From contig CP070655.1 of the NCBI GenBank assembly GCA_020354945.1, forward strand, positions 292,767 to 303,464: a DNA stretch of 10,698 nt, written 5' to 3'. Both the position numbers and the translations under genes were made by a program. Source of the stretch: Candidatus Omnitrophota bacterium (GTDB lineage: Bacteria > Omnitrophota > Gorgyraeia > JABMRG01 > JAFGKX01). The notes beneath the pieces are model-generated. The model saw only the letters and a list, made by a program, of their open reading frames with translations. It was not told where the DNA came from and did not search any database. Every line of letters starts with the position of its first letter. Positions within the stretch are counted from its first letter, which is position 1. Of the stretch, positions 1-10,698 are shown in pieces.

Positions 1-1045
1 ATTCAAACTTGTCGACAGCCTTCATCAAACCTATGTTGCCTTCCTGGATAAGGTCTAAAAAGGAAAGCCCTCTATTAGTATATTTTTTTGCGATAGATAC
101 AACCAATCTTAAATTTGCCTCGACCAGCTCCCTTTTCGTATTTCTAAATAGATTCTCTTTGCGCATAATTATATTAAGTTGATTTTTTATCCCCTTATGG
201 TCTCCCCCGAATTCTGACTTAATCTTATTTGCTTGAGAGCGCAAGGTTCTTATTTTTGTTTTCTGCCTGCGTCTCCGGTATAATTCTATTTCTCTGTTTA
301 TCCTGGCTATCTGTTCTGAATGCATCCTCAGCCTTGCAGAAATCTCTTCAATAAAGCCGGTGGTAAGATTAAGCTTAAACAAAATAACTTCTATAGTAGG
401 AATCTTTTTGGACCTCTTTAATCTCGTAACCAGCTGCTTAATTTTATTCTTCACCCGGGCTGGAGAAACTCCGTTAGTTATGTATTCTTCGTAATTAATG
501 TCTCCGCGCAAAATTTTATCCATCATATCTAAAACACATGTTTTGGTTGCCGGGCATTTAAAAATACTCTCTCTAAAATCTGTCTCTGCTGATTCAATTC
601 TTTTGGCCAGAGCTATTTCATCTTCTCTGCTTAGTAAAGATATCTGGCCCATTTGCCTGAGGTACATTCTAACCGGATCATCGACTTTGGCAGGGAGGGC
701 GGGTTTTCCAGCAACTTCAACAATCTTAGCCTGTTTCAGCTGTATCTCTTTAGCAGCCTCTTCAGTATCTACTAATTCTATCTGCTCTTCAGCTAAGATA
801 TTGAGGATCTGTTCTATCTCCTCAGAAGAGGTTATATCTTCGGGAAGAGCCTTATTTACCTGCTCATAAGTAAGGGCGCCTTTTTCTTTCCCGAGTGATA
901 ATAGCCCATCTATCTGCGCTGATACTTTGGTGGTTTTCTTCTTTCTTGTTTTCTTCTTTCTTGTTTCCTTCTTTCTTGTTTTCTTCTTTCTTGTTTCCTT
1001 CTTTCTTGTTTCCTTCTTTCTTGTTTTCTTCTTTCTCTTTACCAT
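1..1045 (-). CDS. rpoD: RNA polymerase primary sigma factor RpoD/SigA (3' end runs off the window)
   Basis: Translated by hand from ATG 1045-1043, which overlaps the dnaG stop (TAATG). It has region 1.1 ([37 protein letters not shown]), region 1.2 ([30 protein letters not shown]) and region 2 ([43 protein letters not shown]) in the same frame at the window edge. Classic dnaG-rpoD order. Confidence 0.97.
932..1036 (-). repeat. 15-bp tandem repeat x7 encoding (RKK[K/E]T)7 at the RpoD N-terminus
   Basis: Plus-strand units gttt(t/c)cttctttctt start at 933, 948, 963, 978, 993, 1008 and 1023. Only one position varies among them (K or E codon). Confidence 0.95.
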
Positions 1046-2796
1046 TAAATCTTCACGCTCCTTAAATCATTAAATTCTTTAATAAGAGTCATGACCTCTT
1101 TATCGTCTCCTGATTTCTCAGCCTTTCTAATCTGTGATGCGAGTTCTTCTTTCTTAAGCCTGAGATTATCAATTTTTAACCATCTAATGCAATCCTCTAT
1201 AGTCTTTTCTCTATCAATTATATTTTCTACTTCTGCCAGTAAGTGGCAGATAAATTGACTCATATCTTCATTTCCAATATAATGTATGAGTCTGGCAGCG
1301 GTAGGTTGTTTATTATCATCTAAAAGGGCGAAAGAATGTTCGATTATTTTTCTGATACGCTGGTCATTAAAGGCTTCAATGTCAAATTCGTCTTTTATCC
1401 TTCTGGCAATCTCCGCATCTTCCAGCACAAGAGCAGCTATAACGCTTTCTGCGGCCCTGGCTTCTTGCGGCACTTTAAAGGTAGTAGTAACCGGCGTTTT
1501 TATATAATCTAATCTTACTTTCTTAAGTTCTATTAATATGGCCTTCTCATCCACAGAGAGACTTTGCGATAACCTTTTTATATAATCAGACTTTAACACT
1601 GCGTTATCCATCCTTTTTATGGTAGGCAGCATCTCTGATATAATTTCTGCCTTTGCTTCTGCGGTATCTTTACCATACCTTGACAAGGAAATATCCATTT
1701 TATAATCGAATAACCCTCTGGCGGAGGCGACAATAGAGCTAAATTCATCTGCTGATTTCTCTCTGACATACTTGTCCGGGTCAAAGTCTTTTGGCAGGGT
1801 TGCAACTTTAACATTAAGCCCTTCCCCTATTAAAATATCCAGGCTCCTGAGTGATGCAGCCTCCCCTGCCTCATCGGCATCAAAAATTATTACTGTGTTG
1901 GTGGTATATCTTTTAATTAGATTTATCTGGCCTACAGTCAACGCTGTCCCTAAGGTAGCAACGATGTTGGTTATTCCCGCCTGAAAAGGAATAATTAAAT
2001 CAAGGTATCCTTCCACTATAATAACTTCATTCTTTTGACGTATTTCATTGGCAGAGATGCTTAAACCGTAAAGGTGTCTGCCTTTTATATAAATATCTGT
2101 CTCCGGCGAGTTAATATATTTAGGCAGCGTTTCATCAAGCACCCGTGCGCCAAAACCGACTGCTTTTGAATTTATATTGAATATCGGAAATATTATTCTA
2201 TTTCTAAACCTATCATAAAATGAATCTTCTTTACCGGGTATAGCCAGCCCGGCCTTTGAAACAGCATCCTGGCTTATTCCTCTTTTCTGGGCGTACTTCA
2301 AAAAGCCATCCCATAAATCAGGGGCAAAGCCCAGTTTAAACTTAGCTGCAGTTTGAGCGTTTATGCCACGCCGGCGTAAATATTCTCTGGCCCTGGCGGC
2401 CTTATTAGAACCTATCAAAATAGCGTTATAGTAGGAAGCAGCCATTTCATTTATGCGATAAATAAAATTTGCCGCTGCAGTGCGCCTTATGTAATCTCCC
2501 CTTTTAAAGGCAGGCAGCTTTATCCCTGCTTTGTGAGCTAATATGCTGAGGGCCTCCATGAATTCTACCTTTTCATATTCCATTACAAAACTTATTACAT
2601 CGCCTCCTGCGCCGCAGCCAAAACAATGATAAATCTGTTTGCTTGGGTTGACCATAAAAGAAGGCGTCTTTTCCTGATGAAACGGGCACAAAGCCCTAAA
2701 ATTTGCCCCTGCCTTTTTTAGAGGTATATAACCGGATACAACCTCGACAATGTCTATGTGAGATTGTATCTGTTCTATGGTATCCTTCAAATCCAT
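1045..2796 (-). CDS. dnaG: DNA primase
   Basis: CHC2 zinc finger ([11 protein letters not shown]...YHCFGC), catalytic core ([20 protein letters not shown]), TOPRIM motifs (VEGYLD, FDADEAG, DPD) and a helical C-terminal domain. 583 aa. Confidence 0.98.
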
Positions 2797-2820
2797 TTGT
2801 TTTCAGAAACGGTGCATTCT

Positions 2821-3774
2821 TTACCTTCGGATGCGAGTGAAACCAGAGCAAGAAATTATATTTAACTTTTTCTGTTTTTCTATCTCGTCAAATAGTAAAT
2901 TTATGCCCAATGTATCGCTTGAGATATGGCCGGCTATTATTATATTTATTTTCTGCTTTCTGGCTTTCTTAAAATGTTCCTCGCTAATATGCATACCTAA
3001 AAGTGTTGTCACTTTCTTTTTTGCTAGCTCCTTGTAGATATCCTTCGGCCCTTCTGTGCCGCCGGTCATCTCCACTAAAATCTTACCGCATTTATTCGAA
3101 GGCTTACCCAATATAACTTTTGGGCCTTGATTGTTCCTCATAGCTATTTTATATTCAGGGAGCTGATATAACAAATCCAGAATATCCGAGACCTTAGAAG
3201 GTTTTTCCTTCTTTATTAATTGGCAGAAATACTGATAAACAAAATTGTCCGCTACTGTATGCCCGCATATAAACGGGATATTAAGCAATCGGGCTGCGTC
3301 AATGGGACGGGGACAATTCTTAGCAATAGTTTTTCTTAAAACTTCATTTATCCTTTCATCTAACATCTTCTTAATCTTCACTCCGCTAACACCAACTGTC
3401 CCCAGTATGTCATATAAAACATTCATAACCCTGTAAAACTCTGCTCTAGCATGGCCCTGGGGGTGGTGAGAAAATACAAGGTCAATTTTTTCATCCTTCC
3501 CCTTTAGCCTGTCTGCCAGCAGCAACTCCGGGGTCTCAGCATCTATACCTGCCATTATTGTCTTTATTTCTGTCTCTGGTGAACCAAACAGGATCCTTGT
3601 GTCACTGTACGGATTAGATAATTTTTCCTTGTCAAACGCTTCTTTCTCGGCAAGAGGTAGCTTCGCATATTTATCTTTAACCGATTTTAGATATTTTAAA
3701 ACTCCCTTTTTGCCACGGGGGTCTTGTTTAATGCCTTGTTCAACTATAAGCTTGTAAAATTTTCCTAAATTCAT
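2821..3774 (-). CDS. NIF3-like (NGG1p-interacting factor 3 / GTP cyclohydrolase I type 2-like) dinuclear metal protein
   Basis: Motifs DPRG, NPYSDTRIL, HHP, HTVADN, GGTEG, GMHISEEH and AGHISSDTLG. The start is placed at ATG 3774 (MNLGKFY), which has AAAGGTG upstream. The track's 3792 start lies inside a repeat element. Confidence 0.85.
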   Translation of the reverse strand: MNLGKFYKLIVEQGIKQDPRGKKGVLKYLKSVKDKYAKLPLAEKEAFDKEKLSNPYSDTRILFGSPETEIKTIMAGIDAETPELLLADRLKGKDEKIDLVFSHHPQGHARAEFYRVMNVLYDILGTVGVSGVKIKKMLDERINEVLRKTIAKNCPRPIDAARLLNIPFICGHTVADNFVYQYFCQLIKKEKPSKVSDILDLLYQLPEYKIAMRNNQGPKVILGKPSNKCGKILVEMTGGTEGPKDIYKELAKKKVTTLLGMHISEEHFKKARKQKINIIIAGHISSDTLGINLLFDEIEKQKKLNIISCSGFTRIRR

Positions 3775-3825
3775 CCCGCACCTTTCTCTCATTTATCCCG
3801 CACCTCAAAGGGGGAGCGGGATTCA
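3769..3825. repeat. Small hairpin/REP-like element with a duplicated arm over the NIF3 start
   Basis: atcccgcacct occurs at 3773-3783 and 3795-3805, the inverted arm gcgggat at 3816-3822, and flanking attca direct repeats at 3769-3773 and 3821-3825. Confidence 0.7.
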
Positions 3826-4037
3826 ATTTTTCTCCTTTAAATTAATGGAATCTTATTTTAAAAACTTATCGATTATTATCGCGAATGGGGCCTGGCTTGC
3901 TTTATTGGGGGAGATATTGTTATGTTTTTTGGTTGTTGTGATGGAATAAAGCCTATTATAGATGTATATGTTTTCTTCGTTGTCTTAATAAGATAAGGAG
4001 CCAGAAATGACTTTTCATAAATACTTGAATATAGATA

Positions 4038-4439
4038 TTAAACAGGGAAAAATAACAATGCAATTAAAAGAAGGCCCCAGATTAAAAATCCTCTACACAG
4101 GCCGATTAACGCTCCCCCTATTCTTTCAAGCTGCAAAATAAATTGGATATTAAGAACTCTTAAAAGTAAAACAACTCCGTATTTAAAAATAGCCCTGAAA
4201 GATAAAACGATAACAACCAATATAATAAATTGAGAAAGCCAAATAGGTATGTTGATATAGCTAATTAACGCACTCGCTATCTCATTATAATAATGAAATC
4301 CTAGTATAATGCTTAATATAGTGCCTATTAATTTAAATAGCTCTGCAGTAAGACCGACTCTTGCCCCTGTATAAGCTGACCTTAATAGCAACAGGATGAT
4401 TAAGACATCCACCCAGTTAAAGTTCTCTAGCGCCTGCAT
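4038..4439 (-). CDS. cvpA: CvpA (colicin V production) family membrane protein, apparently truncated by an in-frame TAA (frame continues to 3876)
   Basis: N-terminal NWVDVLIILLLLRSAYTGARVGLTAELFKLIG, four hydrophobic segments and LERIGGALIGLCRGFLI (the DR.LG..FG..RG motif). After TAA 4040-4038 the same frame stays open for 53 codons. Confidence 0.85.
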   Translation of the reverse strand: MQALENFNWVDVLIILLLLRSAYTGARVGLTAELFKLIGTILSIILGFHYYNEIASALISYINIPIWLSQFIILVVIVLSFRAIFKYGVVLLLRVLNIQFILQLERIGGALIGLCRGFLIWGLLLIALLFFPV

Positions 4440-4500
4440 ATATTTTCACGCATACAGGGCGTCCCATTCTGTGACATCCCTTATATACAAAAAGCATTAG

Positions 4501-4529
4501 TTTATACCATATAAAACGGAATTTGTCAA
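4501..4529 (-). promoter_or_regulatory. Putative sigma70 promoter for cvpA-NIF3-dnaG-rpoD
   Basis: TTGACA (4529-4524), 17 bp, TATAAA (4506-4501), with a TGn extended -10 motif. Confidence 0.7.
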
Positions 4530-4567
4530 GGTTAGCAGGCCCTTTTTTAATCCCAAAAAATATCCGC

Positions 4568-4600
4568 AAAAAATAACCCCGTCCAATAATGGGCAGGGTT
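4568..4600 (-). terminator. Intrinsic terminator forming the riboswitch expression platform
   Basis: AACCCUGCCCA-UUAU-UGGACGGGGUU stem (one mismatch, one G-U pair) followed by AUUUUUU, directly 3' of the aptamer P1. Confidence 0.8.
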
Positions 4601-4716
4601 GCATCTGCTTCGGCAGCCCTCCGCCGCCTTTACCCTTTTTGTATAAGATTAGAGCGTAGGCCGTAGGCTTTGCGCCCCATACTTTCATATGGTTTGCCTT
4701 TATCGAATACAAATGC
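4601..4716 (-). ncRNA. Cyclic di-GMP-I (GEMM-I) riboswitch aptamer
   Basis: The minus strand reads GCAUUUGUAUUCGAUAAAGGCAAACCAUAU-GAAA-GUAUGGGGCGCAAAGCCUACGGCCUAC...AAAGGCGGCGGAGGGCUGCCGAAGCAGAUGC. It has the GGCAAACC motif, P2 with a GAAA tetraloop, CGCAAAGCC, a CCUA...GG receptor in P3, a 3' UGCCG, and a long P1 (GCAUUUGU-A-UUCG / CGAA-GCAGAUGC). Confidence 0.92.
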
Positions 4717-4723
4717 CTATATT

Positions 4724-4752
4724 AATATACACTATATATAACAATAAATCAA
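4724..4752 (-). promoter_or_regulatory. Putative sigma70 promoter for the riboswitch transcript
   Basis: TTGATT (4752-4747), 17 bp, TATATT (4729-4724). The predicted +1 near 4717 coincides with the 5' end of P1. The region is AT-rich, so other alignments are possible. Confidence 0.55.
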
Positions 4753-4818
4753 TGGCAACACAGTTTTTTCACCAAGCCCTTCTTTAAATATTTAAAATTA
4801 CTTTAGGAACGGCTGGGT

Positions 4819-5424
4819 TTATTCATAGCTTATTTTTATGTTAAATGATTCGCCCTGTTTTTCTATCGTAGATGGAAACGGTGGAAATGGCGCTGCTCTT
4901 TCAACGCTATCTAATGCGATTTGCACCAACGCTGGGTCAGTGTCCGGCAAAACAGAAATTGCACGTTTTTTAGCCAATTTTCCATCTGAGGTAACCGCAA
5001 AAGAAACTAATACTTCGCCCGCTATTGGTCTTTCTGGCTTGTTAGCAATTATTCTTTCATTTATCCTCTGCCAGATTAACCTATAATAATCAGACGGCCT
5101 CATATGTTCGTTCCAGACAATAGTCTCTTTCTCTGCTTCTGATTTTTCTTTTATTTCCTTTAGCCTTTCGCTGATTAACCTTTGGGTTTGCTGTATTTGT
5201 TTTGTTTTTTCTCTTTTCCGTTTTATTTCTTTGGTAAACTTCCCATTTTCTCCGTATGCAATGCGAGGAGTCAAGAAAATATCTGCCAGAGCTGCAGCTA
5301 TCCTGGCCTGTTTAGAACACCCGACAAGCCTTGGGAGGACCATTGCAGAAAGAATGCTTATTATAATCACAACCAGCATCAGTTCTATCAAGGTAAAAGC
5401 TTTTTTATTACCTAACGATAACAT
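4819..5424 (-). CDS. Prepilin-type N-terminal cleavage/methylation (GspG-like) domain fused to a TonB/TolA C-terminal domain
   Basis: Residues 7-49 (KKAFTLIELMLVVIIISILSAMVLPRLVGCSKQARIAAALADI) form a class III signal and GspG-like helix. A charged helical linker follows, then YYRLIWQRI...GEVLVSFAVTSDGKL...ALDSVERAAPFPPFP...FNIKISYE, typical of TonB_C/TonB_2. Confidence 0.75.
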   Translation of the reverse strand: MLSLGNKKAFTLIELMLVVIIISILSAMVLPRLVGCSKQARIAAALADIFLTPRIAYGENGKFTKEIKRKREKTKQIQQTQRLISERLKEIKEKSEAEKETIVWNEHMRPSDYYRLIWQRINERIIANKPERPIAGEVLVSFAVTSDGKLAKKRAISVLPDTDPALVQIALDSVERAAPFPPFPSTIEKQGESFNIKISYE

Positions 5425-5500
5425 ATTTTACTTCCAATTTTTGCAAAGCAAAAATTTCTCCCGAACAGTATAACGAATAGGAACGCTGGAGGGGTATTTT

Positions 5501-6511
5501 TTATCGTTTCGGCGGCGCGCAGGATTTTCTCTTTATTAATTTAGTATCCAGCAAAATCTTAACAGGCTGTCGCCTTTTCCCGTCAAGCATCTGATTTAAC
5601 AACTCAACCGCTTCCCTTCCCATCTCAACTATAGGCTGCCAAACCGTGGTTAAAGGGACTTTTGCATAAGCGGCTATCGGATTATCATCAAAACCGATAA
5701 TTGATAAATCTTCAGGGATGTGCAATCCCTTTTCTTTTGCTACATTCATTGTCTCCATAGCCATAACATCGCTGGCGCAAAATATAGCTGTTGGAGGCTC
5801 AGAAAGATTAAGCAGCCTCTCCGCTTCTCTTCTGGCCGGCCCTCTTAAAAAATGGCCTACTTTAATATATTTAATCTCGCTCAATAAATTGTGCCTTTTC
5901 ATACATCTTTTAAATCCGTCCAGGCGGGCTTTGCCGGCAGCGGTGGAAAGATCACCTGCTATGGTAGCTATCTTAGTATGGCCTAATCCAATCAAATATT
6001 CAATCACATCTTCAGCTGCTTTCCGGTTGTTTACGGCAATACAATTTACTGGTTGTCTTTCAAAATAATTGTTCATAACAATATAAGGGATCTTTCTGGC
6101 AATGACTTTGTTTAGCTGCCTTATATCCCCGTTTATATCGGCAAATAATACCCCATCTATATAATCAGGAGAAAGGGTAGTGCTGGTAAGCCAGTCTTCG
6201 TGTTTTTGCCTATCGGTGATATGGAACATTATATCAAGTTTTAATCTGCTAGCAGCAATGCTAACACCTTTTATCACCTCTGTTGCATAGAATGAATGAA
6301 ATATATCTTCAAATCTGGGAACTACCAGTCCGAATATTCTTGAAATTTTCTGTCTGGTTGAAGCGACAATGGTGGCCTTTAATTTCATCTGGCCAATTGC
6401 TCTTTCTACCCTTTCCCTATCCGCTTTCTTTATGGTGGGCGAGCCCTTCATTACCCTTGAAACTACCATTGACGAAACACCTGCTTTTTTAGCAATCTGC
6501 GATATCCTCAA
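5501..6511 (-). CDS. LacI/GalR-family transcriptional regulator
   Basis: HTH (ISQIAKKAGVSSMVVSRV) and a periplasmic-binding-protein-like core (YLIGLGHTKIA, PTAIFCASDVMA, IPEDLSIIGFDD, PLTTVWQP). TTG start with GGAGGTGG at 6523-6516. Confidence 0.93.
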   Translation of the reverse strand: MRISQIAKKAGVSSMVVSRVMKGSPTIKKADRERVERAIGQMKLKATIVASTRQKISRIFGLVVPRFEDIFHSFYATEVIKGVSIAASRLKLDIMFHITDRQKHEDWLTSTTLSPDYIDGVLFADINGDIRQLNKVIARKIPYIVMNNYFERQPVNCIAVNNRKAAEDVIEYLIGLGHTKIATIAGDLSTAAGKARLDGFKRCMKRHNLLSEIKYIKVGHFLRGPARREAERLLNLSEPPTAIFCASDVMAMETMNVAKEKGLHIPEDLSIIGFDDNPIAAYAKVPLTTVWQPIVEMGREAVELLNQMLDGKRRQPVKILLDTKLIKRKSCAPPKR

Positions 6512-6531
6512 TTTACCACCTCCAAATTCTT

Positions 6532-6561
6532 ACAGACGTTTACGATTTTGTAAACGTCTGT
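6532..6561. promoter_or_regulatory. Perfect 12-bp inverted repeat, candidate autoregulatory operator of the LacI-family gene
   Basis: ACAGACGTTTAC-gatttt-GTAAACGTCTGT lies between the predicted +1 and the SD. Each arm resembles LacI-type AAAC/GTTT sites. Confidence 0.6.
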
Positions 6562-6567
6562 TATTTG

Positions 6568-6596
6568 AGTATAACATAAAGTATTTATCATTGCAA
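6568..6596 (-). promoter_or_regulatory. Putative sigma70 promoter of the LacI-family gene
   Basis: TTGCAA (6596-6591), 17 bp, TATACT (6573-6568), with an extended -10 TGn. The -35 overlaps the last codons of mtaB. Confidence 0.7.
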
Positions 6597-8647: not shown

Positions 8648-9321
8648 GTTGTTTTAATAAATCCTAATACAGTTCTCACTAATATATGAGCACCCAATAA
8701 AAACAATATTGCTCCCGCTATTCGCTGAAACCAGGCGTATGTTCTTTCATTCTGTAATATCTTAAGTTTGGGTAGTAAACCAGTTCCTAGACCTAAAATT
8801 ATCAATGGTGAAATCACAGTTCCCAATCCGAACGAAAGAGCTAATATAATACCTTGATAGAAGCGAATGGATACCATTGAAATATAAGAAAGGATGCCAA
8901 TAAGTGGGGCGCAAGGAAATAAACCTATTATAATACCTAATCCAATGATGCTTTTAGTATCTCTTTTTATGAAAATACCCTGTAATCTATTACAAATTCT
9001 GGAGTGAATATTTTTGCCTGCCATTATTAAAATGCCAAGCAGACAAATAAAAACTCCTCCAAGAAACCATACGATAAATCCTTTAGTTTCCCAGTAATAC
9101 GACTGGTATAGACTGCTGCCTATTATGCCTGCTAATGCTCCTAAGGCAGCATATATAAGTGCCCTGCTTATAGAAAAAATAAACCAGCACTTTAAAGCGC
9201 CTACAGGGCCTTTCTTTGTCGCTGCTATATAAGATATCAATATAGGGCCACAAGTTACCAAACACGGTCCTGCTCCTAATACAACGCCGGTTGTAAAAAG
9301 GCTGAAAGCTATCCTTATCAT
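8644..9321 (-). CDS. DsbD/CcdA-like (TauE/SafE, UreH-like) six-TM membrane protein with conserved cysteines
   Basis: Six hydrophobic segments with GAGPCLVTCGP in TM1, LFPCAPL in TM4 and FGLGT in TM5. The start is placed at ATG 9321 (ATGA overlap with the upstream stop, GGAG at 9329-9326) rather than 9363. Confidence 0.75.
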   Translation of the reverse strand: MIRIAFSLFTTGVVLGAGPCLVTCGPILISYIAATKKGPVGALKCWFIFSISRALIYAALGALAGIIGSSLYQSYYWETKGFIVWFLGGVFICLLGILIMAGKNIHSRICNRLQGIFIKRDTKSIIGLGIIIGLFPCAPLIGILSYISMVSIRFYQGIILALSFGLGTVISPLIILGLGTGLLPKLKILQNERTYAWFQRIAGAILFLLGAHILVRTVLGFIKTT

Positions 9322-10698
9322 TTTTCTCCAAAAACTTCGGCTGTATAAATAAAGATTTCGCATTCGCCCTTTTTCCAGGCATCAGGGGGAAGTCCAGCCT
9401 TGTGCGCGCATAGACTATTCATAAACGTCTCTCTATCCCAGCCTGTCTCGGTAGCAACCTGAGGCAGGAATACTCCGCTTCTAAAACCACTCTGCACCAT
9501 AACGCCGTGTTTTCCCATTATTATTTTTGAGGGATCGCTTATCTTCTCCATTTGGGAAAGAACGGATATCTCAATATCTATAGTATCCAATTCATCTTTG
9601 GTAACTCCTGGAAATCGGGGATCCTGGGTAGAAGCTGCAATTGCCATATCCCTTACTGTAAGATAAAGAGGGCCTTTGCCTATCATATTGCCAATACAGC
9701 CTCTTAATTCTCCATACTTATGTAATGTAACAAATGCTCCAAGTTCTTTATTTAATACAGGGTCGCCTTCTTTAAATTCTAAGGTTTCTCCTTTTTTTAT
9801 ATAAGTCTCTAAAGTCTTCCTTGCAATCTCAAGCAACCTTTCCTTCTGTTCGTCATTAAGCAACTCTTCCATCTTCTTCTCCTTCTCTTCTTTAACTGAT
9901 AACCGATTGCTGATAACTGACGACTGATAAATCACCGCACTGCAATATCCGACCACCTGAGACTTATCAAAAGTAACATCGCCGGAAGTTGCATATTTTA
10001 ATACTTTTAATTTATCTGCGCCCAATTCCCTGGCAGCCATCATAACACCAATAAGACCTATACTATTGCAAGGCCTTTCACTATTGGACCAGGATAGGCA
10101 TTTTGCAAATAGGGTCTCCGGGTCAAATTTTTCCATCTCTTTTATGGTGCGCGCATCTATATTTCGGGCTTTTTCCTCCGGAAAAAAATGGGACATATCG
10201 GCGCTGGCGACTAAAAGTATCTTTTTGCCGCTTTTTTTAACAATGCTGCTTATGGCATCTCTTAACAAACAGCAGCTCTCATAGGAAAAATCACCGGTTA
10301 GAATTACTACAATCTTAAAATTTTTCAATGTCCTTTGTAAAAATGGTATTTCAACCTCTGCAGAATGCTCTACTCTAAAAGGCAATTCATAATATGATAT
10401 GTTCTTGTTATAAGCGACGATTTTCTTAGATATATCTTTATCAATAGCAACATTGCCAAGGGGGGTTTGATAAAAATCCTTGTCCAGCACCGATAATCCC
10501 TTAAAAGGTACCCTGTGGCTTAAGCCGACAACTACAACTGTATCAAATTTTTTATCTTTGATAATTTTTGCGCCATATCCTGCTACCCAACCAGAATACT
10601 TATAACCAGCGTGCGGTAAAATAATAGCTACAATTTCACCTTGAATCTCCTCCGGGTCTGCCCTGTCGATAAAACCATCTACTATATTTTTTAACACC
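9318..10698 (-). CDS. amrB: AmmeMemoRadiSam system protein B (MEMO1 family) fused to protein A (AMMECR1 family), 5' end outside the window
   Basis: MEMO motifs PHAGYKYSG, EHSAEVEIPFLQ, SADMSH and YATSGDV...VVGY, then AMMECR1 motifs GAFVTL...LRGCIG, DPRF, EISVLS, FLPQVA and KAGL, all in one frame open to the window edge. Confidence 0.92.
   Translation of the reverse strand, partial: VLKNIVDGFIDRADPEEIQGEIVAIILPHAGYKYSGWVAGYGAKIIKDKKFDTVVVVGLSHRVPFKGLSVLDKDFYQTPLGNVAIDKDISKKIVAYNKNISYYELPFRVEHSAEVEIPFLQRTLKNFKIVVILTGDFSYESCCLLRDAISSIVKKSGKKILLVASADMSHFFPEEKARNIDARTIKEMEKFDPETLFAKCLSWSNSERPCNSIGLIGVMMAARELGADKLKVLKYATSGDVTFDKSQVVGYCSAVIYQSSVISNRLSVKEEKEKKMEELLNDEQKERLLEIARKTLETYIKKGETLEFKEGDPVLNKELGAFVTLHKYGELRGCIGNMIGKGPLYLTVRDMAIAASTQDPRFPGVTKDELDTIDIEISVLSQMEKISDPSKIIMGKHGVMVQSGFRSGVFLPQVATETGWDRETFMNSLCAHKAGLPPDAWKKGECEIFIYTAEVFGEK
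9895..9929. repeat. Degenerate 7-bp tandem repeat x5 in the AmrB/AmrA linker
   Basis: actgata accgatt gctgata actgacg actgata, encoding YQSSVISNRLSV. Confidence 0.7.

Follow-up and report, generated by a model that had tools for sequence, protein, structure and literature searches.

Introduction

TonB and TolA proteins are normally anchored by a helix with an SxxxH motif, which is energised by ExbBD or TolQR. The major pseudopilin of the T2SS (type II secretion system), GspG, has a class III prepilin leader with F at position +1 and E at +5, a hydrophobic alpha-1 helix and a globular T2SSG domain. The modular type IV pilins of Streptococcus sanguinis, which bear an additional module at the C-terminus, retain the whole pilin module, are conserved and function as subunits of the pilus.

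We analyzed a stretch of 10,698 nucleotides from a Candidatus Omnitrophota genome (assembly GCA_020354945.1, contig CP070655.1, positions 292,767 to 303,464; the whole stretch is hereafter called the window), in which one open reading frame (ORF) joins a prepilin-type N-terminus to a TonB-like C-terminal domain. At first sight this ORF suggested a novel means of powering a TonB domain. Judged from sequence comparison, it is most probably (probability about 0.85) an in-frame deletion chimera, the relic of a type II secretion cluster that was lost during genome reduction. As a deletion-made chimeric ORF it is ordinary in kind, a scar and not a new machine.

The ORF has the leader, F+1, E+5 and alpha-1 helix of GspG, but lacks everything beyond residue 49, which is the whole globular T2SSG domain, and is changed at two otherwise invariant basic helix positions (R36C and R/K46L). 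The accompanying T2SS assembly platform is also missing, the cluster being deleted at the locus. With TonB and TolA proteins (PF03544, PF13103; C-terminal domains 6sly, 5lw8, 2m2k and 1s62) the ORF shares a TonB-fold C-terminal domain and a predicted topology of N-in membrane anchor, linker and periplasmic domain, and it is 28% identical to the TonB of its own genome over 180 columns. However, its anchor is a prepilin helix without SxxxH (the motif is present in 13 of the 13 full-length TonB-like rows of alignment A1), its linker is a charged helix instead of a Pro-rich one, and exbBD is not adjacent. As in the S. sanguinis modular pilins, a non-pilin domain comes after a class III leader, but the ORF has neither the pilin globular module nor full-length homologues in the databases searched. 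The stretch from residue 49 to 201 is the tail of a GspD secretin of the Omnitrophota type (the parent; examples are P0269, P0270, P0121 and P0122), which ends in a coiled linker plus TonB_C-like domain; its N0/STN, Secretin_N and Secretin domains are deleted here except for the last seven Secretin residues. The ORF thus fails membership of all three families: it has no globular domain for GspG, no SxxxH anchor for TonB and only seven residues left for the secretins.

Layout and predicted fold of the protein

The features at the locus are the following (window coordinates, strand in brackets). G001 is a genome of the same genus and G003 a genome of another genus in the same family.

4819..5424 (-): chimeric ORF, gspG' fused in frame to 'gspD; 201 codons and a stop, with halves that match two separate genes in G001 and G003
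5278..5424 (-): gspG-derived part, codons 1-49, from the N_methyl match, the GspG model and the G001 gspG match
5398-5424 (-): class III leader, residues 1-9; the hydrophobic alpha-1 helix also lies within codons 1-49
5278..5280 (-): junction codon Ile49, from the codon comparison with both G001 parent genes
5260..5280 (-): IFLTPRI, residues 49-55, the final seven residues of the secretin domain, equal to G001 secretin 487-493
5134..5244 (-): Lys/Glu-rich charged linker, residues 61-97, a single predicted helix
4822..5097 (-): TonB/TolA-fold C-terminal domain, residues 110-201, from PDB profile matches, Foldseek and identity to the secretin tail
5501..6511 (-): lacI-family regulator (Pfam LacI and Peripla_BP_3; 94.4% DNA identity to G001)
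6533..6587 (no strand): proposed scar of a second deletion; homology to G001 stops at 6532, the MiaB-like gene has its stop at 6588, and gspE and gspF stand here in G003

The ORF starts with ATG on the minus strand and encodes 201 aa, and the retained gspG start is preceded by a Shine-Dalgarno-like GGAAG motif. No sigma-70-like site was found by the promoter scan in the 76-bp spacer between lacI and the ORF, no terminator-like site by the terminator scan in 4400-5600, and no tRNA genes were found. In the Pfam scan, N_methyl (PF07963) matched residues 6-30 of the protein (27.8 bits, cut-off 21.2), and neither the globular T2SSG domain (PF08334) nor Secretin (PF00263) gave a match; of the latter domain only IFLTPRI remains. 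The NCBIfam GspG model TIGR01710 covered residues 9-49 only, which correspond to model positions 2-42 of 134 (31.4 bits, cut-off 88.85). The leader reads KKA followed by FTLIE, with F at +1 and E at +5, and its Ala at -1 is shared by 42 of 118 GspG relatives, 70 others having Gly. Because residues 1-49 contain no His, there is no SxxxH anchor motif.

As a single sequence, the C-terminal part stayed below the curated cut-offs of TonB_C (PF03544; 21.6 vs. 24.6), TonB_2 (17.3 vs. 22) and TIGR01352 (23.6 vs. 27.1), with matches that cover the last 70-90 residues of the ORF. A profile of 39 sequences including this part matched solved TonB C-terminal domains (5lw8_A, 5.5e-10; 6sly_A, 8.4e-10). The AlphaFold2 model of the protein (mean pLDDT 84.6) consists of helices at residues 11-33 and 38-50, a low-confidence segment at 53-58, a long charged helix at 61-97 (pLDDT 84-97 by block) and then the C-terminal domain; the ten-residue blocks from 101 to 200 had a pLDDT of 81-98, with nine of the ten at 94 or above. 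When the model was compared with the PDB by Foldseek, the best matches were C-terminal domains of TonB, HasB and TolA (6sly, E 2.5e-4, probability 1.00), and the top 18 ranks were all of the TonB/TolA type. An earlier note on this DNA had described a prepilin leader, a GspG-like helix to residue 49, a charged helix and a TonB_C-like domain, with the SxxxH helix absent; Pfam, NCBIfam, the profile and AlphaFold2/Foldseek confirmed this layout, and the missing His confirmed the absence of SxxxH.

Matches of the two parts in related genomes

Residues 1-49 aligned to residues 1-49 of the G001 GspG with 36 of 49 identical (73%, pairwise alignment), and the DNA over window 5279-5408 was 90% identical to G001 gspG. 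Residues 49-201 aligned to residues 487-661 of the G001 secretin (118 of 175 identical, with a 22-residue gap in the linker); linker length differs between secretin tails, and over residues 97-201 the identity was 79%. Since the Pfam Secretin match of this 661-aa protein spans 321-493 and so ends with residues 487-493, IFLTPRI represents the last secretin strand. The earlier note had proposed just this for IFLTPRI and had placed it from 5280, in agreement with the junction codon I49 at window 5278-5280.

The two parts belong to separate frames in both related genomes. In G001, residues 2-52 of the ORF matched within a 148-aa frame, and residues 48-201 matched the final part of an open frame of 691 aa; the two frames share a contig and stand about 8.6 kb apart. 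The same split was found in G003, with residues 7-52 in a 162-aa frame (76%) and residues 49-201 in a 639-aa frame (41%), about 8.5 kb apart. The parent GspD secretins in the two genomes have 630-661 aa, the last 150-175 or so of which correspond to ORF residues 49-201, and the identities of these residues to P0269 (67%) and to P0270, P0271 and P0272 (53-58%) mark them as an orthologous tail.

At the junction, the chimera reads GAT ATT TTC TTG, G001 gspG reads GAT ATA GAG and G001 gspD reads ATC ATC TTC TTG. Both parent genes have an Ile codon at the junction point, and any microhomology amounts to a few bases only, so there is no repeat at the breakpoints able to mislead an assembler. A deletion of about 8.6 kb would have run from gspG codon 49/50 to gspD codon 486/487 and fused the two frames at an Ile codon. 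This event was the second of two explanations in the earlier note, in which gspG was joined to the tail of a secretin-TonB_C gene when a T2SS cluster collapsed; the alignments to GspG and to the secretin and the deletion of the interval between them bear it out.

Gene order around the locus

The genes of the window are ordered dnaG, NIF3, cvpA, ORF, lacI and MiaB-like. The order in G001 is dnaG, NIF3, cvpA, secretin, GspC-like, AAA_22, PilO/GspM, PilM-PilN, GspK, pseudopilins, GspG, lacI, GspF and GspE, and G003 has the gene order of G001, with the MiaB-like gene directly before gspE. Window segments 857-5124, 5279-5408 and 5511-6532 align to positions 1-4257, 13056-13185 and 13320-14341 of the G001 locus (L024) with a DNA identity of 88-94%. 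The interval missing here, which is 8,578 bp in G001 coordinates (derived from the ORF coordinates and the codon comparison), encodes in G001 the secretin body, GspC-like, AAA_22, PilO/GspM, PilM-PilN, GspK and the pseudopilins.

In G001 and G003 lacI sits between gspF and gspG, and here it is kept between the two deletions. Because the MiaB-like gene adjoins gspE in G003, gspE and gspF have also been lost here, by a second deletion beyond lacI. The ancestral order would have been MiaB-like, gspE, gspF, lacI, gspG, minor pseudopilins, gspK, gspL/M-like, AAA_22, gspC, gspD, c-di-GMP riboswitch, cvpA, NIF3 and dnaG, with a gspD that encoded a secretin with a C-terminal TonB_C-like tail; the first deletion would have made the chimera and the second would have taken out gspE and gspF. 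The opposite polarity, with the fused gene ancestral and the cluster gained by insertion in the relatives, has no observation in its favour, was rejected on parsimony and deserves practically no credence. Such an insertion must complete both the GspG globular domain and the whole secretin body exactly in frame, the intact cluster stands between the same flanks in a genome of the same genus and in one of another genus, and at least 34 further genomes of the phylum have the tail at the end of frames of at least 595 aa.

Of the cluster genes only lacI is retained here, and no other gene of the region is as strongly conserved (94.4% DNA identity to G001), which suggests that the regulator also acts on targets outside the T2SS. 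At window 6532-6561, between the MiaB-like stop and the lacI start, a perfect inverted repeat of 12 nt (ACAGACGTTTAC / GTAAACGTCTGT, 6-nt spacer) lies exactly at the limit of homology to G001; possible roles are a terminator stem and an operator of the LacI type. The spacer between lacI and gspG in G001 (L024 about 13202-13312, minus strand) contains short tandem repeats with AAAAAGTTY and AACCTTTAG units, which are missing from the spacer between lacI and the ORF in the window; the latter spacer does not align to G001.

Contigs across the junction

Logan contigs (contigs, not raw reads) from three runs of three studies cross the junction at 5279/5280. In X8, record 28 (272 nt), which stems from another study, aligns gaplessly over 5189-5416 and differs at 12 of 228 nt, a divergence of about 5%; record 14 of X2 spans 5251-5336 and record 2 of X1 spans 5143-5309. 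The flanks on either side of the junction are 91 and 136 nt in X8, 29 and 56 nt in X2, and 137 and 30 nt in X1. The match of another X2 contig (record 15, 985 nt) ends exactly at 5279 and is followed by 118 further letters, as expected from a related strain with an intact gspG.

As the junction is bridged by a contig from another study, it is not a misassembly, a concern that the earlier note had raised and that is answered here at the level of contigs, not raw reads. An assembly artefact, by which the assembler fused gspG to gspD and omitted the cluster, might be suspected because the genome stands as one contig whose assembly method is not given, and because contigs of X1, which may be the source sample, cover the locus thinly and with breaks; the lack of X1 cover over 4756-5097 was given no weight. 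Such an artefact is nevertheless very improbable: the breakpoints share no repeat and at most a few bases, contigs of all three runs and studies (X8, X2 and X1) cross the junction, the deleted genes are missing from the whole genome, and a second, independent deletion lies next door.

Searches for homologues and remaining secretion genes

A search of 5.8 billion clusters at 90% identity found no full-length homologue of the ORF protein other than itself, and a word-indexed search with residues 50-201 in proteins of 110-352 aa returned the query only. Among the best 150 of 829 matches from 1.84 billion representatives, no protein joined a pilin N-terminus to a TonB part. Pfam analysis of 23 of these 150 listed matches (16 multi-stretch and 7 long) identified eight secretins with tail, 12 proteins with N_methyl only and three with TonB only, and N_methyl and TonB_C occurred together in none of the 23. 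Residues 49-201 were matched in 242 of 401 genomes of the phylum, and among the matches listed a frame of about 200 aa behind a prepilin leader was present only in this genome. A degenerate DNA pattern of the junction peptide had five matches in JGI metagenome contigs and 11 in GTDB representatives, a searched set from which records of this genome or its near kin may be left out; all 16 were chance frames and none was a pilin-TonB fusion.

The genome is a single contig of 1.14 Mb, compared with 1.8 Mb in G001 and 2.1 Mb in G003, figures that may have been rounded. The names given in sources to its nearest GspG relatives, and the ESM Atlas neighbours, place the organism probably in Omnitrophota. 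In this genome PF08334 has no match (two each in the relatives G001, G002 and G003), and there are two secretins, both in frames too short for the tail (five, three and four), and six matches to the T2SSE family, GspE/PilB (11, 9 and 12). By these counts, no GspG-type pseudopilus is left for the fragment to join. One prepilin peptidase (Peptidase_A24) and four other pilin-like N-termini are retained. The C-terminal part of the ORF matches in this genome only the ORF itself and one canonical TonB. The TonB paralogue (L002) has 228 aa with the SxxxH motif SIVVH and adjoins a fragment of a TonB-dependent receptor gene, and ExbD is located elsewhere, at 489 kb.

In the other explanation of the earlier note, that of a novel system, an assembly/retraction ATPase would pull a TonB domain that has been built into a (pseudo)pilus. 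In its favour, the ORF has kept the class III leader, E5 and the hydrophobic helix, and pilus ATPases and secretins exist elsewhere in the genome. However, the fusion stems from a lineage-specific deletion, the pilin globular domain is absent, the genome retains no pseudopilin of the GspG type, and the stretch from residue 49 to 201 matches the C-termini of secretins; conserved or full-length homologues were not found in the databases searched, and the nearest ESM Atlas clusters are plain TonB/TolA families (0.76, which is below the counting level and serves as a lead only). A fusion unique to this genome whose residues 49-201 match secretin C-termini was the note's own ground for refutation; by the searches and alignments above, we regard the explanation as refuted and highly improbable.

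Substitutions after the deletion

Among 118 GspG relatives, position 36 is R in 114 and K in four, and the C36 of the chimera is seen in none; the Cys that the earlier note had pointed out where Arg is expected in GspG is thus a true departure. Position 46 is K in 78, R in 22 and another residue in the rest, and the L46 of the chimera is likewise seen in none of the 118. The X8 contig that bridges the junction retains R36, R46 and V30, where this genome has C36, L46 and L30. Since X8 carries the junction together with the ancestral residues, the three substitutions of this genome arose after the deletion. In relative-rate comparisons, the N-terminal part had six changes specific to this genome and two specific to G001 (48 columns), and the flanking genes had 23 and 19 (1,368 columns). 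The helix substitutions and this excess of N-terminal changes speak for decay, so that the evidence on function is mixed.

Several observations were counted against a relic. With four outgroup secretin tails, the changes in the C-terminal part specific to this genome and to G001 were 10 and 8, 8 and 10, 8 and 8, and 5 and 7; the part is not evolving faster than the intact secretin tail of G001, which counts against decay. The eight positions that are nearly invariant in the TonB_C-like family are all retained (Y113, G136, F142, G148, L166, P179, F183 and P184), and the dN/dS of the C-terminal part against G001 is 0.17, a value that spans the time before and after the deletion alike and so does not speak for a function. 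The frame is intact, the gspG start is kept and the fusion is present in the strain diverged by about 5%. Furthermore, the prepilin peptidase, pilin-like genes, two secretins and PilB/GspE-type ATPases remain, so that processing of the product is possible. By our own rough estimate, the divergence of about 5% between junction haplotypes would be too small for the open frame to be evidence of selection. The intact frame, the kept residues, the symmetric C-terminal part and the persistence fit a young relic equally well, and they do not prove that the product is functionless.

Against G001, the secretin tail has a dS of 0.75 (window 4822-5280 vs. L024 3955-4479), which exceeds the dS of the flanking genes (0.16-0.26) by a factor of about three to four. 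Together with the symmetric amino acid changes, this points to a segment that may be fast-evolving or recombined, and not to decay specific to this genome.

In our assessment, the ORF is very likely a deletion remnant without a selected function. If made from the gspG start, the product would insert N-in/C-out in the inner membrane, and the single prepilin peptidase might cleave it after Ala9. A helix of about 37 residues would then hold the TonB-fold domain in the periplasm, copying the topology of TonB by accident; without the SxxxH helix there would be no coupling to ExbBD, and without a pilin head domain or cognate pseudopilins the product would be unlikely to polymerise. Because it has neither a pilin globular domain nor SxxxH, we take the product to be functionless or at most an incidental, undecayed remnant.

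Co-option, in which the fused protein is expressed and kept as an inner-membrane tether of a TonB_C domain without ExbBD coupling, and may be processed by the peptidase, appears unlikely. It would account for the intact ORF with its near-invariant family residues, the symmetric substitution counts of the C-terminal part and the junction in the strain diverged by about 5%; with its N-in anchor, helical linker and TonB-fold domain and its 201 aa, the protein resembles in topology and size the 228-aa TonB of this genome, and one Peptidase_A24 gene is present. Against it, the architecture has no homologues in the databases searched, radical changes have occurred at invariant helix positions since the deletion, and the divergence since then is, by the estimate above, probably too small for an intact frame to show selection. 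Slightly more doubtful still is that the deletion made in one step a TonB-like protein with a prepilin-helix anchor, which was processed by the peptidase and selected as a periplasmic tether or fed into one of the remaining type IV-pilus-like machines. If the remnant had been put to use, this would be a recorded case of two unrelated secretion-system parts giving rise to a new architecture of envelope protein.

Read as a deletion remnant, the ORF illustrates how reductive evolution may yield a plausible 'novel domain architecture' through a single deletion, and is a caution for architecture mining in small uncultured genomes. It would also be a natural experiment, with a TonB-fold domain placed on a foreign anchor and dated later substitutions.

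Tailed secretins in the phylum

The parent secretin-TonB_C architecture is more interesting than the ORF itself. The T2SS secretins at L024 3955-5937 (-) and L025 10822-12714 (+) consist of STN/N0, Secretin_N and Secretin domains and, after a charged linker, a TonB_C-like domain; the parent ends in this coiled linker and TonB_C-like domain instead of the pilotin-binding S-domain. Proteins of this architecture are P0121, P0122, P0150, P0159, P0190, P0222, P0234, P0238 and P0269-P0272, with Secretin-family Pfam domains detected on eight of the 12 by the Pfam scan and on four by the precomputed Pfam column. P0122 carries two TonB_C copies, and the PFPPFP-type domain is also present in ordinary SxxxH TonB-like proteins of the phylum. 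The tail match ends frames of at least 595 aa in at least 34 genomes (401 searched; 150 of 313 matches listed; frame length as the sole criterion), and by such sequence matches the secretin with a TonB_C-like tail is widespread in the phylum.

In the portions of the literature reached by a full-text search, no description of a secretin with a TonB_C-like tail was found; passages in one preprint (10.64898/2026.06.07.730766) deal with TonB-domain genes beside giant proteins, not with secretins. As candidate ligands of the tail, we consider peptidoglycan, a TonB-box-like strand and the STN/N0 domain of the secretin itself.

Riboswitch and flanking genes

A c-di-GMP-I (GEMM-I) riboswitch aptamer was identified at window 4609-4708 (-), between the stop of the ORF and cvpA (58.7 bits, gathering score 35). 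The aptamer is also present in G001 (L024 3683-3782, minus strand, 53 bits), and in G003 none reached the gathering score. A promoter-like TTGCCA-16-TATAGT is located at 4758-4731, just upstream of the aptamer. The ORF at 4497-4712, which overlaps the aptamer, is probably spurious, and a spike of metagenome-contig depth at 4642-4712 probably reflects the conserved aptamer.

The cvpA gene (Colicin_V) encodes 133 aa here, compared with 188 aa in G001 and 177 aa in G003. It is shortened by a change from GAA to TAA at codon 134 (window 4038-4040, minus strand), and the downstream frame is readable and nearly identical to G001, which suggests that the TAA is either a nonsense mutation of recent date or an error in one base. 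The sigma-70 RpoD gene at window 2-1045 (-) has a Lys-rich repetitive N-terminal extension (KKETRKK-type units, about 40 residues) before region 1.1. At the other side of the window, 9318-10697 (-) encodes a fusion of Memo-like and AMMECR1 proteins (459 aa), which runs past the window end.
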